From Octopus vulgaris (Eukaryota): a DNA stretch of 64,000 nucleotides. Location of the stretch: assembly GCA_951406725.2 (NCBI GenBank), contig OX597817.1:69068001-69132000 (forward strand), in the 5' to 3' direction. Of this stretch, positions 5,677 through 34,272 are shown piece after piece. The notes below the pieces were generated by a model, which saw nothing but the letters and a program-made list of their open reading frames with translations, did no database searches and was not told the origin of the DNA. Within the stretch, counting starts at the first letter, position 1. The number at the start of each line of letters is the position of its first letter. The translations under genes and the position numbers were made by a program.

Positions 5677-6692
5677 AGGATTATAGGATGCCTACACATA
5701 CGTATATATGTATACATGTACATGGAGGCATGTGCATTTTGTACTACTCTCCATATGTGTGAGTGTAGGAGAGACAGTGTGTATATATGTATATATGATT
5801 TTTCGTTGAGTTTAATTCAAGTTCTTCTTGAGAGATTTCAAGCCGGTCGTTAACAAAGAACAAGACTTTTTGAGTTAAAAGAGCTTCCAGTGTTTATAAA
5901 TATGTGGTTGAGTTGATGTGTTGTTTCAACTCTCAATGTATACACCCACGTGTATGCATCTATTCACATAAAAATCTCACATGGAAAATTTTTGGTATGT
6001 CTTACAAATCTTCACTATGCTACTAATAGATTGGATTTGAAGAATCTGCGTATTTCTGAGCATTTCTAGGGTTTTGTGCAAATTTGTTGCCACATACATA
6101 TGTATGTATGTATATGTATATGTATGCATGTATGTGTATGTCTTCAAATTTTGAACTAAGGGCAGCTCTATAATGTAAACATTATCAATGTCACATACCT
6201 AATGTATGTGTGCTGTCAAACACTTTTAGACTGTGGTATTTTGTCCAAGGAAAGTCTGTTTAAAGGCAGGTGAAACAAATTACTCTAGAGATGAACGACA
6301 GAGACAGATATCAATATTTCACTGTTATTTCAGATTATCACTGCCATATACTTGATTTGCTCTGGAGATGAATTCAAATTGCTGGCCTGATGTATACACA
6401 GATAGGGTAAAAGTTTATTTACTGGTATGCAACTACAGCATACAAGTAAAACAAAATTTTGGCAAAGAAACAAATCTAAAATTTAAACATTGTTGATGTC
6501 ACATACTTCATGTATGTGTGTTGTGGAATACATTTAGGTCATGGTATTTCATTCCAGAGGAATTCCCATTAAAGATATAATGTATTAAAGAAACAGTATA
6601 ATACAGAGCCACTTCAAAATCTTATAAGGATGTATGAGGCATTCTCAACCTATTGCATAACAAACCTATGCACAAACACACAAAGCATGCCT

Positions 6693-13155: not shown

Positions 13156-13509
13156 ATGCATAAGTGGTACAGCAACATCAAAGGAAAATTAACCGAGAAG
13201 ATAGCTTTCGTGTGCAGCAGATGCACAGGGGCAATAGACACCACGGATACTCAGAAAACAGATTCCATCACACTCCAGGGAAAGAAACTAGAAGTAGCTG
13301 ATAGTTTCTGCTACCTAGGTAACCAAGTTAGTAGTGGAGGTGGATGCTCAGAGAGTGTCACCACCAGAATAAGAATAGCCTGGGCAAAGTTTAGAAAGCT
13401 TCTACCCCTACTGGTGACAAAGGGTCTCTTGCTCAGAGTAAAAGGTAGATTGTATGATGCATGTGTGCAAAATGCCATGCTTCACGGCAGTGAAACATGG
13501 GCTGTTTAG
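13156..13509 (+). mobile_element. RTE-clade LINE fragment (C-terminal reverse-transcriptase region)
   Basis: ORF carries LEVADSFCYLG, RIRIAWAKFRKLLPLL, KGRLYDACV and HGSETW motifs typical of RTE ORF2, preceded by a CxxC remnant. Confidence 0.9.
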
Positions 13510-20757: not shown

Positions 20758-20797
20758 TGAATCATTCACAAGGCTTTGCTTGACTCAGGGCCATAGT

Positions 20798-21210
20798 ACT
20801 CTTTACTCTCTTTTACTCTTTTACTTGTTTCAGTCATTTGACTGCGGCCATGCTGGAGCACCGCCTTTACTCGAGCAAATCGACCCCAGGACTTATTCTT
20901 TGTAAGCCCAGTACTTATTCTATCGGTCTCTTTTGCCGAACCGCTAAGTGACGGGGACGTAAACACACCAGCATTGGTTGTCAAGCAATGCTAGGGGGAC
21001 AGACACACAAACATATACATACACATCCATATATATATACATATATACGACAGGCTTCTTTTAGTTTCTGTCTACCAAATCCACTCACAAGGCATTGGTC
21101 GGCCCGGGGCTATAGCAGAAGACACTTGCCCAAGATGCCACGCAGTGGGACTGAACCCGGAACCATGTGGTTGGTAAGCAAGCTACTTACCACACAGCCA
21201 CTCCTGCGCC
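20798..21210 (-). mobile_element. Young full-length SINE A nested in an older SINE A
   Basis: CpG-rich near-consensus copy; host resumes with TAGAAGACTCTTGCTCAAGG at 21211. Confidence 0.92.
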
Positions 21211-21397
21211 TAGAAGACTCTTGCTCAAGGAGTTGCACAGTGGAACTGAACCTGAAACCACATGGTTGTGAAACAAACTTCTTAACCTCACAGCCATGTC
21301 CGCAACTTGTATTCTTTTACTCTTTCACTTGTTTCAATCATTTGAGTGCAGCCATGCTGGAGGACCACCTTAATAATATATGTATGATTTAATTTCA

Positions 21398-21763
21398 TAA
21401 ATAGCAGTAGTGTGATTCCCTTCATGGGACTGTCACATGAAGTTGACAGTATGCAACTACTCTGTCGTACCACTACTGCTTATATCTCTCCGAGATATTT
21501 AGAAATGTAATATTTCTATTTTTGTAATCAGACATCTCCAACTAGCAGGCAATGCTACTCCAGACTGATGACGAGCAAAGACTCAAAAACTAGTCTCTGG
21601 ATGCAGGCTTAGCTGGACGGAGGTGCTTGTCTCCCCCTTGTAAACATAAGAACACAGGAAATGTGTCAAGGCCGACAGGAAGCACTGATACTTCCTAGGG
21701 CTAAATAGCAGTGCTGTGATTCCTTTCATGGGACTGTCACATTAAGTTAACAGTATACAACTA
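21398..21763 (+). mobile_element. Penelope/retrozyme-like unit: 62-bp direct repeats (304-bp period) enclosing a degenerate type I hammerhead
   Basis: TAAATAGCAGT.GTGTGATTCC.TTCATGGGACTGTCACAT.AAGTT.ACAGTAT.CAACTA at 21398 and 21702; TCCAGA-CTGATGA-CGAG..CTC-AAAAA-CTAG-TC-TCTGGA at ~21559-21601. Confidence 0.6.
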
Positions 21764-22966
21764 ATTTATTTTCAAATTTTCTACAATTAATATTTACTCA
21801 TATGTTAAGTGACAAATTTTGCTTCATTTTATTCATTTTTATGATGCCTATGTATGTATGTGTATTTATACCTTTGTACCTGAATTTATTTCATATTGTA
21901 GTATTCTTCAAACATTTTAACAAATTCCAGTAATTCATGCCAGTCTACCTTTATGGTACACCTGTTTTATATGCATTCAAGATCAACTGATAATTTATAG
22001 CATAATTTTAATATATTCTACAGTTGTTATATAATCCCAGCAGAATATTGATTAACAGCTCACATTATATGGTGATTTTTAAACCAAATTTTCACTGAAT
22101 TTACCAGAAATTAGAGTAGTTTTGAAACAAAATTGGCATCATAGATTTATGTAAGAGCCTTTTGTCAACTTGTGCTCCAGGCATCACCTTAATGTATCAA
22201 TAAAAACGAAAGTTATAGTTGTATCATAAAACCAGTCTAAACTCATGATTAATTAGGAATTTAATTGAAACACAGAAATATGGTAACAAAAGGAAGGGAA
22301 CTAGTTGAGAAGTAAAGTTTTATTAATTTGTTTCCCATCCATATTTATTTCCAGTTGCTACTGGATAACACAACAGTACATTGGCAGAATAAATGCTGGG
22401 AGAACTGCCACATAATATTTGGAGCTAACTCTTTAAATTTTGATTTAAAAACCTAATACAAACAATTGAAGCAGTATTAAATTAAAATAGCCATTTGTAT
22501 ATCATACTCAAAGTATACACACTGTCTGTTGACCAATTACTTGCCGTAATTGCTTCTTAAACAGAATGTCTTTAACACAGCAACTCCATAAGAGATGTTA
22601 TTTCAGGACAAACACTGCAGTAACTGGCCTATTGCCAATGTATATACATAAAGTCTGAGTTAAAATTTGCTTTTTATCCTTCACCACTGCCATCACCCCC
22701 ACCACCACCATCATCATCATCATAATTCAGCATTTAATTATTGTTTACTTTTACATGCTTACTTATATGGATCAAACAAGAGTGTGTTGGGCCAGAGTTT
22801 TCTATAGCCAGGTGCACTTCCTATTGTCACCCACAGTATCTTTTCTCAAGTAAGATTATAACCTTTTAGTCAATCAGACAACAAACAGCCCAGAATTGTT
22901 TGCCTGAAGAACTGGAAACAAATGACATCAAAGCAAGTCTTTTGTTTACAAAGATTGCACAACATA

Positions 22967-23137
22967 GGCGCAGGAGTGGCTGTGTGGTAAGTAGCTTGCT
23001 AACCGACCACATGGTTCCGGGTTCAGTCCCACTGTGTGGCATCTTGGGCAAGTGTCTTCTGCTATAGCCCCGGGCCGACCAATGACTTGTGAGTGGATTT
23101 GGTAGACGGAAACTGAAAGAAGCCTGTCGTATATATG

Positions 23138-23168
<31 letters not shown>

Positions 23169-23385
23169 TTGTGTGTCTGTGTTTGTACCCCTAGCATTGC
23201 TTGACAGCCAATGCTGGTGTGTTTATGTCCCCGATACTTAGCGGTTCGGCAAAAGAGACCGATAGAATAAGTACTGGGCTTACAAAGAATAAGTCCCAGG
23301 GTCGATTTGCTCGACTAAAGGTGGTGCTCCAGCATGGCCGCAGTCAAATGACTGAAACAAGTAAAAGAGTAAAGAGTAAAAGAGT
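22967..23385 (+). mobile_element. Young full-length SINE A with 6-bp TSD
   Basis: Near-consensus; TSD AACATA at 22961-22966 and 23386-23391. Confidence 0.93.
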
Positions 23386-23566
23386 AACATATAAAGACAT
23401 CTGAAGATGCTGCCATAGTGGACTGCAGGTAAATAGCACCATAAGCGAAGCTATTGTTTATAGCAAGCAAAACGTGTGTAGACAAGGGGAATTCAAACCT
23501 ACACAAATACACACAACACTCACCACCACACACATACACATGTGTGTGTGTCTGTATGTGTGTGTA

Positions 23567-25138
23567 TAGTGGTGCAATTTGATTTTATATATTCAAGTTG
23601 TAAACTTTTATATATTCAAGTTGTAAATTATGAATTAAGATATATATCAAAATAAAGAAGATTTCATGAGCTTTAATATGGTAACATATCAATTTTACAG
23701 TGTAACAGCAACATATATTAATATCATCTTAATTATTGTAATTTATAGCACCATTTAATTTAGGAGCAATTTGTTAAATTTCAGTTTTTTGCTTTAAAAA
23801 GCTTATTCTGAGATTAACAAACAAAAAAAATTATTATTATAATAATAAGCTCACACATCAGTATTTGGTTGGGTATCCAAAATTACTTAATACAGCTTTG
23901 CATCTGTGAAACATAGAATTGTTTACATTGTTTATTTCTGTTTCTAAGATCTTTTCCCAATTTTGGCTAATAATGTTTAAAAAATCATTCTTATTCTTTG
24001 ACTTACTACTTTGCACAGCTCTACCCAACCTTTCCCAAAGATTTTCTATGGGAGATACGTCAGGTGACTGCACTGGCCATTGCGTCAACTGAACTCTCTT
24101 AGACCTAATGTAATCTCTGACTAGGTGCGAGGTGTGTTTTGGATCATTGTCATGCTGGAAAGTTCAAGATCAGCCCAAATGCTTTTGGGCATATGGAAGC
24201 ATAGTCTTATCTAATATTTTTAGATAGGACTTACTGTCCATAATGCCCTTGATTCAGATTATAGGACCGACACCTTTTCCAGACAAGCACATCCACACCA
24301 TCACACTTCCACCACTGCATTCTTACATACTTCCTGCCATCACTGTCGAACAAGTTGAACTTTGACTTGTCCAACCACAACACATTTAGTCAATCTGCTG
24401 GACTCCAATTCAAATGCTCTTTTGCAAACTGTATTCAGGCACATCAATTTTTTAAAGAAACATATAGCTTTTTTCAAGAGACTCTGCCCTAGAAGTCCAA
24501 ATTCTTTGAAATGTTTTTTTTTATGGTGGACACGCCAATGGCAAGTCCATATTTTTGCTGAATTTCTTTTAAAATGTCAACAGCAGTCATTAAAATTTTT
24601 TTTGGAACAGTCTATGAATGTATCTATCCATTCATGCCATTGTTTCTCTTGGTTGCTCAGGTTGAAAGTGGTCTTTATAATCATTAGTATATAAAGATGG
24701 ACAGCTTTGTAGGCAGCTGTTTTAGAGCATCCAACTTCATTTCAAATAGCCTTATGTGACCATTTCAGCCTACTAAGCTAAACAATACTCATTCTGGTGT
24801 TAAGTTTTGTCTCTTACTCATCACAACTATTAAGTAACTTAGAAATTGTAACAGCATGCAAATTACCCGACGTTTATATTAATCAATAAGGCAAAAAGAA
24901 TGCAATTTTGCAAATCATTCTTCAATTAAATGGCAATGTAACTTACGCAAAATAAAGTTTATTTTTAATTTAAAATTGATATATTGATGTTATGCTGTAA
25001 AGCTGTATACCATATTAAAGTTTGTGAAAATTTCTTTATTTTGATATACATCTTAATTCACAATTTACAACTTGAATATATAAAAAATGCCATTTTAACT
25101 TTAGTATACTAGCGTTCTTAAATTAAATGGTACCACTG
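23567..25138 (-). mobile_element. Full-length but decayed Tc1 (DD34E) transposon, ~1.57 kb, IR/DR type
   Basis: ~200-bp inverted termini (AGTGGTGCAATTTGATTT / AAATTAAATGGTACCACTG, shared TATATTCAAGTTGTAAATT block) with an inner direct repeat of the end motif; minus-strand transposase motifs. Confidence 0.92.
23858..24830 (-). pseudogene. Tc1 transposase pseudogene
   Basis: VLWLDKSKFNLFDSDG, GGSVMVWMC, FQHDNDPKH, WPVQSPDVSPIENLW, GYPTKY*; 34 residues between the second D and E; stops and frameshifts upstream; 5' boundary approximate. Confidence 0.9.
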
Positions 25139-28430: not shown

Positions 28431-28537
28431 AAAAATATGGAATGCTTCACAAATTTGTGCATCATCCTTGCACAGGGGGCCATGCTAATCTTCTCTGTAT
28501 CATTCCAATTTTAGAATATGTACCGCCGTAGCAGTAC
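28431..28537 (-). pseudogene. RNU6: Full-length U6 snRNA retrocopy
   Basis: Minus strand GTACTGCTACGGCGGTACATATTCTAAAATTGGAATGATACAGAGAAGATTAGCATGGCCCCCTGTGCAAGGATGATGCACAAATTTGTGAAGCATTCCATATTTTT; ACAGAGA box and AGC triad intact, several CpG-decay substitutions, no TATA box near -30. Confidence 0.95.
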
Positions 28538-30772: not shown

Positions 30773-31718
30773 TGTTTACCACCCCCCACCTCTGCTTGAT
30801 AACCAGTTCAGCAAAACTGACTCGTAGGATAAATACCAGACTTAAAAGTAATAATAAATACTGGGGTCAATTTGTTCAACAAAAACCCTTCAATGTGGTG
30901 TCCCATTGTGGCTGCAGTCCAATGACTGAAACAAGCAAAAGCTAAATGAAGTATGTACATACATGCTCAGACGCATAGTCAACATTGACCAACAGAAATC
31001 CCATGTAATAAATGCGTTTAACAAATAGGTAATTCAGCTGGTTGAATAACTTAATGTCTATCATCAAAACCATTGAAGACCCATTATGCATCTGAGAGTA
31101 CATTAAGCAGAGTCCTACACTTTGTCTTTTTTGATTGTTTTCTTTTTTGAAGCTGAAATTTGGTGGTGTATGATAAACCAAGGTGATAACTGTCATGAAA
31201 TAACAAGTAGACATTGATAAAATGCAATATCTTCACTAGAATTAATTTTCATGGATATATGTGACATAACTGAATAGAGACCAGCATCGTAGGAGGATAA
31301 GTATTGCCATAACAAAGTGATTTTACATCAAAATATCATGGAGTTTATTTTATTCATTTATTCCATATCACAGTTCATGAACAACATTATTGTTGGCTAA
31401 AGTTTTCTCCAATAGGTAAATAGCTCATTCTCTGCATTTCTGATGGTGAGTGTTTGTAATTCATCACAGAACAAATATCACAAAGGACTTCAATTGAAAG
31501 CACCCCACCCCCACAACAGACATGTGCATGTGAGCACACATGCACACACATACACACACACCATGGCCTTCTTTCAGTTTCCATTTACCAAGTAAGGAAT
31601 CATTTTCCTCATGGCCAGATATGTTTGGTTGTTGCATCCCAATGCACACCCACACATGGCCGCCCAACTGCTGAAACCATTAACCAATTGGGTTTTGAGG
31701 TGCTGGAACACCCTGTCG

Positions 31719-32832
31719 ACAGCCTTCCTATATCCCTTCCTATCCTAGAGAGTTCCTGAGTTAACTAGATAATAAAAATTTCATGGAAGATGATTACAGA
31801 GAATCACAAAAGAGTAACTTACAGATCAAGCACAGGATCCAACAAACCACAGGAATACACTGCTCTGGTGAGATCTCTACAGCTGGATGCCCTTCCTAAT
31901 GACAACCCCTTTACAGAATGGTTGCTTTTTTTTTACCTTGTGACACTAGCACTAGTAAGGTCACTATATCTGATGAATAGACAGGATGGTTATTGCTGAA
32001 ATATCATTGATCATAGGCCTGTTGAGTCAAGACTGACCTGGGGCTAAACAACAACATCAAAGAAAGGTGTATTAGATAATGCAGTCTTATTTCTCTCACC
32101 TTAACATGTACTCACTGGCTGTAAGCAATGACTTCACTCAAGAGTAACATTTGCTTGCAGTCCACTGAAAAAGAGTGCCCAAACTCCCTAACATGCCTTG
32201 ATATGCTATGTGGGTTTAATTTGCTTCAAGATTTTTTTTTTAATATAAATATATCCAGCTTGTTTGTTTTGCAAGTATAGAAGAATAGACATTAATGATG
32301 ATGATAATGCACATACCTGTAGCAAGCTAATTAAAAGTGTATTCAAATAGAGGGTGATTGTAACAAAAATTTAATAAAAAATACAAATTTGGGAAGGAGA
32401 ATTTTAAGGACTAACTTTATATTCATTATATTGACAAGTAAGGGAGACAACTTCACTGAACTTGATAGTGATGAAGAAGTCACTAATGGTGTTTTTATAA
32501 GAAATAAACCTCATTGTCCATTTTTGCTTTTCATCATTCCAGGCCTGGTCAATAGAATATCTATTCTTCTCTTGGTCCATCCTTGTGTATATCAGCTATG
32601 TTGTACTGTAATAAATGTCACAAGAAACCCATGGAGAGCATCCCATTCCCCAGAAATTGGGAAGAGTTGAGCAAAAAGCTTGTAATTATTTCTCATGGAG
32701 ATTCTGTTATTTCATCCACAGGAACTGTCCATAAACAGACCAGAGTACAGAACAGTATAGAACATAAATTAAGAAACTAAATAAAGATAGATATATAAAA
32801 AGTTCAGTGTGTTTAATAAATATCATCACATC

Positions 32833-32864
<32 letters not shown>

Positions 32865-32967
32865 CTGTGTTGGTCTCCCATCACTGCTTTACAATCCTAT
32901 GAATCTGGGTTTACTTCTCAACTTGGGTTCAGTTTTACTGCATGGCACCTTTGATTCCACTAAACAG

Positions 32968-33004
<37 letters not shown>

Positions 33005-34234
33005 TTCCTTAAGAATCTGTGTTCCATACTAGTATGGGAATTGATTTTATGTGATACATCATACAAAATGTCATGGTAGACTGATTCTAAAATATTTGTG
33101 GCTCTACAGCCCTTCCTATATCCCTTCCTATCCTAGAGAGTTCCTGAGTTAACTAGATAATAAAAATTTCATGGAAGATGATTACAGGGAATCACAAAAG
33201 AGTAACTTACAGATCAAGCACAGGATCCAACAAACCACAGGAATACACTGCTCTGGTGAGATCTCTACAGCTGGATGCCCTTCCTAATGACAACCCCTTT
33301 ACAGAATGGTTGCTTTTTTTTTTACCTTGTGACACTAGCACTAGTAAGGTCACTATATCTGATGAATAGACAGGATGGTTATTGCTGAAATATCATTGAT
33401 CATAGGCCTGTTGAGTCAAGACTGACCTGGGGCTAAACAACAACATCAAAGAAAGGTGTATTAGATAATGCAGTCTTATTTCTCTCACCTTAACATGTAC
33501 TCACTGGCTGTAAGCAATGACTTCACTCAAGAGTAACATTTGCTTGCAGTCCACTGAAAAAGAGTGCCCAAACTCCCTAACATGCCTTGATATGCTATGT
33601 GGGTTTAATTTGCTTCAAGATTTTTTTTTTAATATAAATATATCCAGCTTGTTTGTTTTGCAAGTATAGAAGAATAGACATTAATGATGATGATAATGCA
33701 CATACCTGTAGCAAGCTAATTAAAAGTGTATTCAAATAGAGGGTGATTGTAACAAAAATTTAATAAAAAATACAAATTTGGGAAGGAGAATTTTAAGGAC
33801 TAACTTTATATTCATTATATTGACAAGTAAGGGAGACAACTTCACTGAACTTGATAGTGATGAAGTCACTAATGGTGTTTTTATAAGAAATAAACCTCAT
33901 TGTCCATTTTTGCTTTTCATCATTCCAGGCCTGGTCAATAGAATATCTGTCACATTTTGGCTCAATTCTTCTCTTGGTCCATCCTTGTGTATATCAGCTA
34001 TGTTGTACTGTAATAAATGTCACAAGAAACCCATGGAGAGCATCCCATTCCCCAGAAATTGGGAAGAGTTGAGCAAAAAGCTTGTAATTATTTCTCATGG
34101 AGATTCTGTTATTTCATCCACAGGAACTGTCCATAAACAGACCAGAGTACAGAACAGTATAGAACATAAATTAAGAAACTAAATAAAGATAGATATATAA
34201 AAAGTTCAGTGTGTTTAATAAATATCATCACATC

Positions 34235-34272
<38 letters not shown>

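Follow-up and report, generated by a model that had tools for sequence, protein, structure and literature searches.

A decayed 1.2-unit insertion in Octopus vulgaris, probably of a non-LTR retrozyme, with a Schistosoma-type hammerhead

A segment of the Octopus vulgaris genome in which two short direct repeats enclose a hammerhead-like motif raises the question of what kind of element it is and how it came to lie there. The surrounding 64 kb, which were analysed as a whole and are referred to below as the window, consist of AT-rich, microsatellite-rich DNA that includes a U6 copy. Retrozymes have been described in corals, mussels, amphibians and fishes, and the return of their circular RNAs to the genome is still a model (10.64898/2026.07.22.740005, PMC7229834, PMC7761336); here and below, statements drawn from cited papers refer to their accessible parts. 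Cephalopods are not among the classes given for the 35 genomes of the 2026 preprint (10.64898/2026.07.22.740005), nor are they named in the accessible parts of PMC7229834. The octopus element is a real feature of a known kind, in what is likely a new host lineage. It is likely a dead copy of an animal non-LTR retrozyme, probably inserted when a circular or multimeric RNA was copied by target-primed reverse transcription.

The element is a 366-bp insertion on the plus strand (21398–21763) and comprises 1.2 units, namely a 304-nt unit and a 62-nt overlap (Table 1). The two 62-nt direct repeats agree at 56/62 positions with a spacing of 304 bp (E 3e-19 within the window), and their similarity ends sharply at both edges of each copy. 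No ORF longer than 52 aa lies inside the 366-bp element, and the longest internal ORF (52 aa) has neither a Pfam match nor a credible homologue. With 304 bp of non-coding sequence at 43% GC, the unit falls within the 150–450 bp and below the 50% GC given for animal retrozyme units (PMC7229834). An active retrozyme is defined as at least two consecutive units, each with a complete hammerhead (10.64898/2026.07.22.740005), whereas the octopus element has one hammerhead; dispersed monomer derivatives are common in the same survey (10.64898/2026.07.22.740005). The initial annotation, made from the sequence alone, had reported 62-bp direct repeats 304 bp apart, which were borne out, and had read them as a 1.2-mer insertion from a retrozyme-like family. 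The latter reading is supported by the partial tandem, the type I hammerhead and the target-site duplication (TSD); against it, no further copies of the element were found elsewhere in the 64-kb window.

Table 1. Positions of the features of the element and its flanks within the window
Feature	Positions	Strand	Basis
Left TSD copy, 11 bp	21387..21397	.	Top flank match, zero offset, 10/11
62-nt terminal redundancy, 5' copy, with which the 304-nt unit starts	21398..21459	+	Repeat comparison
One 304-nt unit, 43% GC	21398..21701	+	Predicted stable circle
Long interrupted stem with the hammerhead at its tip, extending helix I	21538..21620	+	MFE folds
Internal loop 1, 5' strand CUAC, extrahelical C position retained	21555..21558	+	Comparison with S. 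mansoni GUAC
Helix I, 5' strand, 6 bp	21559..21564	+	Hammerhead layout mapping
Catalytic core C3–A9, CUGAUGA, intact	21565..21571	+	Layout mapping
Domain II, 14 nt, three pairs and C.A at 10.1:11.1	21572..21585	+	Pair probabilities 0.86–0.87
Helix II strands GAG/CUC	21573–75/21582–84	+	Layout mapping
Loop 2, 6 nt, CAAAGA, capping domain II	21576–81	+	Comparison with S. mansoni CAAAUA
Core positions 12–15.1, position 12 (21586) = A	21586..21589	+	Layout mapping
Region of the weak helix III, a 6-nt palindrome by which two hammerheads would pair	21589..21594	+	Layout and pairing
GUC triplet	21593–95	+	Layout mapping
Predicted cleavage site, 3' of C17	21595..21596	+	Hammerhead numbering
Helix I, 3' strand	21596..21601	+	Layout mapping
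Internal loop 1, 3' strand UGCA	21602..21605	+	Comparison with S. mansoni UCCA
62-nt terminal redundancy, 3' copy, amounting to 0.2 of a further unit	21702..21763	+	Repeat comparison
Right TSD copy, 11 bp	21764..21774	.	Flank comparison

Both ends of the element are abutted at zero offset by an 11-bp TSD with a 10/11 match, a feature absent from the initial annotation. The pair was the best match in a scan of all lengths from 5 to 25 and offsets within 6 nt. Its score was attained by 249 of 100,000 flank shuffles, by 37 of ~20,000 random AT-rich pairs and, with 2 nt of slack, by 26 of ~2,000, for a null range of 0.002–0.013. The flanks are 88% AT and the duplication has one mismatch, both of which count against the best reading. 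The same test was run on the spaced direct repeats listed for the window (17 rows); four of the rows scored above the element, and all four belong to one microsatellite region at 61.9–62.3 kb. The 11-bp TSD strengthens the reading of the element as an insertion. A duplication at an AT-rich site is the usual sign of staggered nicking and target priming, and in this respect it speaks against a hammerhead-bearing satellite piece having moved as DNA, through an extrachromosomal circle or break repair and without an RNA step. Such a transfer is very unlikely, even though a 1.2-unit segment whose ends do not coincide with the cleavage site would also fit a cut-out from a tandem array and the difference between the repeats could predate the insertion. 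As to length, TSDs of metazoan retrozymes exceed 4 bp (PMC7229834), that of the Nematostella retrozyme is 15 bp (PMC4918200) and those of rotifer Penelope elements are 8–10 bp (PMC3846280).

Three other classes of element were considered and rejected. LTRs end in TG..CA, and neither such ends nor a PBS- or PPT-like tract beside the repeats was found by eye. TRIMs and LTR retrozymes carry a PBS, a PPT, a 4–6 bp TSD and a type III hammerhead inside the LTRs (PMC5680766, PMC10886601), whereas here the TSD measures 11 bp and a type I hammerhead lies between the repeats. No tRNA-derived part was detected that would suggest a tRNA-derived SINE, and the C/D-box scores for a snoRNA were weak (12–14 bits), far below the cut-off.

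The layout of the hammerhead follows the general numbering of this ribozyme. Helix I, the CTGATGA core, the GAG/CTC strands, the ACTAGT palindrome and the GTC triplet named in the initial annotation all lie at the expected places on the plus strand, and the three pairs beyond loop 1 in the long stem are predicted with a probability of 0.97–1.0. Domain II has the expected length with three of its four pairs formed, and helices I and III fit the canonical geometry. The mutation of GAAA to an A-run was likewise seen: five A's stand at 21585–89 where one base and GAAA are expected, and the general-base position, G12 in an intact core, is A. In an alternative register, C21572 is an extra base, 21585 takes the place of G12 and a single A counts as an insertion; this register also gives a G10.1–C11.1 pair. 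Because G12 is the general base of hammerhead catalysis (PMC6155905), the present copy is very likely inactive in either register; the initial annotation had also judged it probably inactive. The broken core, together with C.A in place of the usual G–C at 10.1:11.1, counts against the retrozyme reading. As a separate observation, helix II (21573–21584) would need only one more base to form a perfect hairpin of 5 bp with a 3-nt loop, which offers a third possible reading of domain II.

One term of the initial annotation was not supported, namely the description of the hammerhead as minimal. The canonical metazoan motif has a helix I of 6 bp, a helix II of 4 bp and a helix III of 1–2 bp with a palindromic loop (PMC4209133), while in the minimal motif of Penelope-like elements (PLEs) helix II is long, helix I short and loop 1 ill-defined, and helix III or the tertiary loop contacts are missing (PMC4209133, PMC7761336). 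The octopus motif combines a 6-bp helix I and a 14-nt domain II with internal loops of the Schistosoma type. In S. mansoni, internal loop 1 is UCCA:GUAC and loop 2 is CAAAUA, and in the solved structure the first U of the 3' strand of loop 1 partners the last A of loop 2 (PMC2632901). The octopus loop 1 (UGCA:CUAC) is identical to this at 6/8 positions and loop 2 at 5/6; the two differences in loop 1 form a compensatory swap of C–G to G–C, predicted to be paired at 0.99, and the tertiary-contact U, the extrahelical C and the 3' A are all retained. As the element also has a helix III of one pair with a palindromic loop, its hammerhead appears to fit the canonical retrozyme class better than that of a Penelope pseudo-LTR.

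These loops bear directly on the closest alternative, in which the element is not a free retrozyme unit but the terminal pseudo-LTR (pLTR) fragment of an autonomous PLE, left as a 5'-truncated partial tandem. PLEs do form partial tandems with type I hammerheads and 8–10 bp TSDs (PMC8557442, PMC3846280), 31 recently active PLE families are reported from O. vulgaris (PMC13282606), and in the alternative register the extra C between positions 9 and 10.1 and the G10.1–C11.1 pair would be PLE hallmarks (PMC4209133). Against this, tertiary loops are typically absent from PLE hammerheads, in which helix II is longer and helix I shorter (PMC4209133, PMC7761336), whereas the octopus element keeps its Schistosoma-type loops. 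Further, no coding remnant lies between the 62-nt repeats, no inverted pLTR was seen, and none of the 234 screened ORFs of the window gave an RT or GIY-YIG Pfam match. A PLE fragment is thus an unlikely identity for the element. It should be noted that the 2026 preprint derives retrozymes from pLTRs, so that the two readings overlap (10.64898/2026.07.22.740005); the pseudo-LTR reading is weaker than the retrozyme reading but related to it.

How unusual is such a motif in DNA of this kind? Type I descriptors, of which the relaxed form allows one core mismatch, were composed after the sequence had been seen, with the tertiary part taken from published features. The relaxed descriptor found a single locus in the 64 kb, the hammerhead of the element, against a mean of 0.18 loci per shuffled window (827 shuffles), and 94 of 166,970 element shuffles matched it. 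Once the descriptor also required the geometry of the tertiary loops, no match was obtained in 827 window shuffles or in 166,970 element shuffles. Because the descriptors were written after the sequence had been seen, the core alone is only modestly unusual at the scale of the window, and it is its position in a TSD-flanked partial tandem that convinces. No Rfam hammerhead family matched at E ≤ 10 on 601 or 91 bases around the motif, and no hammerhead appeared among the best 150 of the 239 Rfam matches of the whole window; this counts against a hammerhead, yet is not surprising with a broken core. The lack of Rfam support, the frequency of the relaxed motif in shuffled windows and the presence of other spaced direct repeats in the window would all agree with an old duplication remnant that encloses a hammerhead-like string by chance. 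However, the motif, the tertiary loops, a stable circle and the TSD coincide in one 366-bp segment and no exact CUGANGA occurs in five other spaced repeats, which leaves coincidence scarcely credible.

A 304-nt plus-strand circle that carries the 5' repeat has a predicted MFE of -90.7 kcal/mol (z -4.3, 0/100 shuffles as stable), and one that carries the 3' repeat has -81.9 (z -2.8, 2/100 shuffles as stable), with z values of -3.1 and -1.6 for the minus-strand circles. The unit is therefore predicted to form a stable, self-paired circular RNA, although the predicted pairing of the plus circles, 59–62% (62% with the 5' repeat), lies below the >70% quoted for metazoan retrozymes (PMC4918200) and counts against it. 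Taken by itself, the 71-nt hammerhead shows no unusual stability (z -0.8). Within the monomer, pairing of C3 and U4 into the helix III region is predicted with a probability of about 0.8, giving a locked form, and the active single-hammerhead fold costs 7.7 kcal/mol. Two units would reach the active state at 6.8 kcal/mol as a double hammerhead compared with 15.3 as two single ones, a gain of 8.5. The dimer fold still lies 6.8 kcal/mol above the free ensemble, which counts against it, in a nearest-neighbour model that ignores tertiary contacts and cannot form a 2-nt loop. The modelled energies suggest cleavage by pairs, as in amphibian retrozymes (PMC7229834). As a minor observation on the six differences between the repeats (21409–21453 versus 21713–21757), those that can be judged break predicted pairs in the 3' copy and not in the 5' copy, and are too few to test.

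The predicted cleavage site is 198 nt away from one end of the element and 168 nt from the other, which rules out a cleaved linear monomer as template and makes a circle or an uncut multimer the likely one. In a cycle modelled on the retrozymes of coral, mussel and axolotl, transcription would have begun from an intact tandem copy elsewhere, and the hammerheads would have cut the transcript into 304-nt units, probably while paired through the palindromic helix III. Circularisation of the units by a host ligase would have followed. An autonomous non-LTR element, with a Penelope-like element as the leading candidate and a LINE as a possible one, would have supplied the endonuclease that nicked the AT-rich site 11 bp apart and the reverse transcriptase that, primed on the RNA, copied 1.2 times round the circle; the production of more than one unit from a circle by reverse transcriptase is a published model (PMC7229834, PMC4209133, PMC7761336). 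The inserted copy would subsequently have decayed neutrally by about 5% and lost its catalytic G. The repeats differ by 9.7% (95% interval 3.6–19.9%); assuming that they started out identical, each would have diverged by about 5% since the insertion. The TSD copies differ at 1/11 positions. With an Octopus calibration of 0.065 divergence for 18 million years (PMC13282606), the insertion may be dated very roughly to ~14 million years ago, with a wide error.

The same divergence gives a chance of about 45% of at least one change among the 12 core bases, so that neutral decay would account for the A at position 12 with about that probability. It is conceivable that this A is instead native to the family, with cleavage either switched on by A-to-I editing or absent. 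Only one copy has been seen and it carries the A, the element sits between inverted repeat copies that are 92–94% complementary, and A-to-I editing is heavy in cephalopods. However, position 12 is predicted to be unpaired, and an unpaired base is a poor substrate for A-to-I editing; a native A12 is highly improbable.

Set beside known systems, the element matches animal non-LTR retrozymes in all features that a single copy can display except the intact core and the tandem number. It is therefore classed here as probably a decayed copy; it is regarded neither as an active retrozyme nor as a functional ribozyme. With those of coral, mussel and axolotl it shares the unit size, a GC content below 50%, a type I hammerhead and a stable self-paired circle (PMC7229834, 10.64898/2026.07.22.740005), as well as the lack of a PBS or PPT and a TSD longer than 4 bp (PMC7229834). 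Those retrozymes occur in arrays, whereas the octopus window holds one dispersed 1.2-unit copy with a broken core. Sm-alpha of Schistosoma mansoni has the same 6-bp helix I, the closely similar loops 1 and 2 and the tertiary-contact bases (PMC2632901); the element departs from it in the C.A at the base of helix II, the A12, a shorter helix III and the absence of a tRNA-derived part. HHR_Amex1 of the axolotl has a similarly weak palindromic helix III and its cleavage is dimer-dependent (PMC7229834). Where the element has C.A at the foot of helix II, HHR_Amex2 naturally carries U.U (PMC7229834), so that the C.A may by analogy be native rather than a product of decay. The two axolotl hammerheads and newt satellite 2 come from another host phylum and are likened to the element by architecture, not by sequence identity. 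The minimal hammerheads of PLE pseudo-LTRs resemble it in the palindromic 15.2–16.2 region, the partial tandem, the TSD length and, if one of the two possible registers applies, the extra base after A9 (PMC4209133). Unlike the element, they lack tertiary loops and usually have a helix II of 5–8 bp and an adjoining RT–endonuclease ORF (PMC4209133).

Searches for relatives and for coding content yielded little. Two exact-pattern scans of prokaryotic genomes for the element gave 0 matches, and BLAST against phages and plasmids returned only one 27-nt stretch (E 0.03–0.09), which was taken as chance. The 52-aa antisense frame had no match among longer proteins and four among representative proteins, all of which were rejected. 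The best of these, a tandem-repeat model from Elysia crispata, was the sum of 15 weak stretches (best 23.5 bits, 12/40), and the other three were repeat strings that in our interpretation resemble translated CRISPR arrays. The Elysia crispata entry itself (KAK3756517.1) is an annotated protein of 1132 aa built from tandem repeats of ~68 aa; it probably represents a satellite mistaken for a gene and is unrelated to the element. The Pfam screen covered 234 of the 477 window ORFs of at least 50 aa, the other 243 having been dropped for repeat overlap or low complexity. It gave two matches, one to a piece of a DDE_3 transposase and one, below threshold, to Ninjurin. Among the 234 screened ORFs there was neither a host gene nor a PLE domain, and no ORF with RT or GIY-YIG lies within the bounds of the TSD.

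Among the papers listed from the accessible literature on retrozymes and on hammerheads and ribozymes in octopus or cephalopods, outside of which most subscription papers and supplements fall, none showed an octopus retrozyme. In giant squid, 235 Rfam hammerhead loci were counted with no further description in the accessible text (PMC6962438), and the main text of the 2026 repeat annotation of Octopus vulgaris does not contain the words ribozyme, retrozyme or hammerhead (PMC13282606). The family may already stand in the supplements of PMC7229834 and the 2026 preprint or in repeat libraries. Tentatively, and with somewhat less than an even chance, we propose that octopods carry an undescribed retrozyme family with a canonical hammerhead of the Schistosoma type, whose dispersed copies are TSD-flanked footprints of reverse transcription round a circle by one unit and a fraction. 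A bolder version, in which the whole family shares A12 and A-to-I editing acts as the switch for cleavage, is highly improbable. A long TSD, a short terminal redundancy and ends off the cleavage site together form the footprint predicted by the circle-return model. If the proposal is true, the start points, overlap lengths and target consensus of such copies would document the circle-template model directly in genomic sequence, and the same data would identify the mobilising enzyme as Penelope or LINE, a point on which the literature is undecided. The present element, although this copy is probably inert, can serve as a seed for finding the family in cephalopods.

The remainder of the window offers several observations in its own right. 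A dispersed SINE-like repeat of ~420 bp, which presumably is of an octopus SINE type, has at least ten related copies in the window. One inverted pair of it (20797–21212 on the plus strand and 22965–23386 on the minus strand, 92% identical) encloses the element and would form a long dsRNA if co-transcribed. A pseudo-ORF from the neighbouring dispersed repeat had a single match, in Argonauta hians (1/8 candidates). Among five other spaced direct repeats none contains an exact CUGANGA and one has a weak motif with two mismatches; three of the five were compared with the element and showed no similarity. One of the five, a 75-nt repeat at 6167–6241 and 6475–6549 (79%, 308 apart), has no TSD, hammerhead core or likeness to the element. 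A 117-aa frame at 13156–13509 on the plus strand, without a Pfam match, resembles what we take to be the end of an RTE-type LINE reverse transcriptase, and the DDE_3 transposase fragment at 23861–24163 on the minus strand (E 4e-8) is likely a Tc1/mariner remnant. The U6 snRNA copy at 28431–28537 on the minus strand is full-length (97 bits, RF00026) with several substitutions, and is followed by a 17-bp tandem repeat and then a fragment of a repeat family; it is probably a retroposed pseudogene. Finally, a near-tandem duplication of ~1.17 kb (31716–32870 and 33103–34272) with 98% identity is recent, and either real or an assembly artefact.
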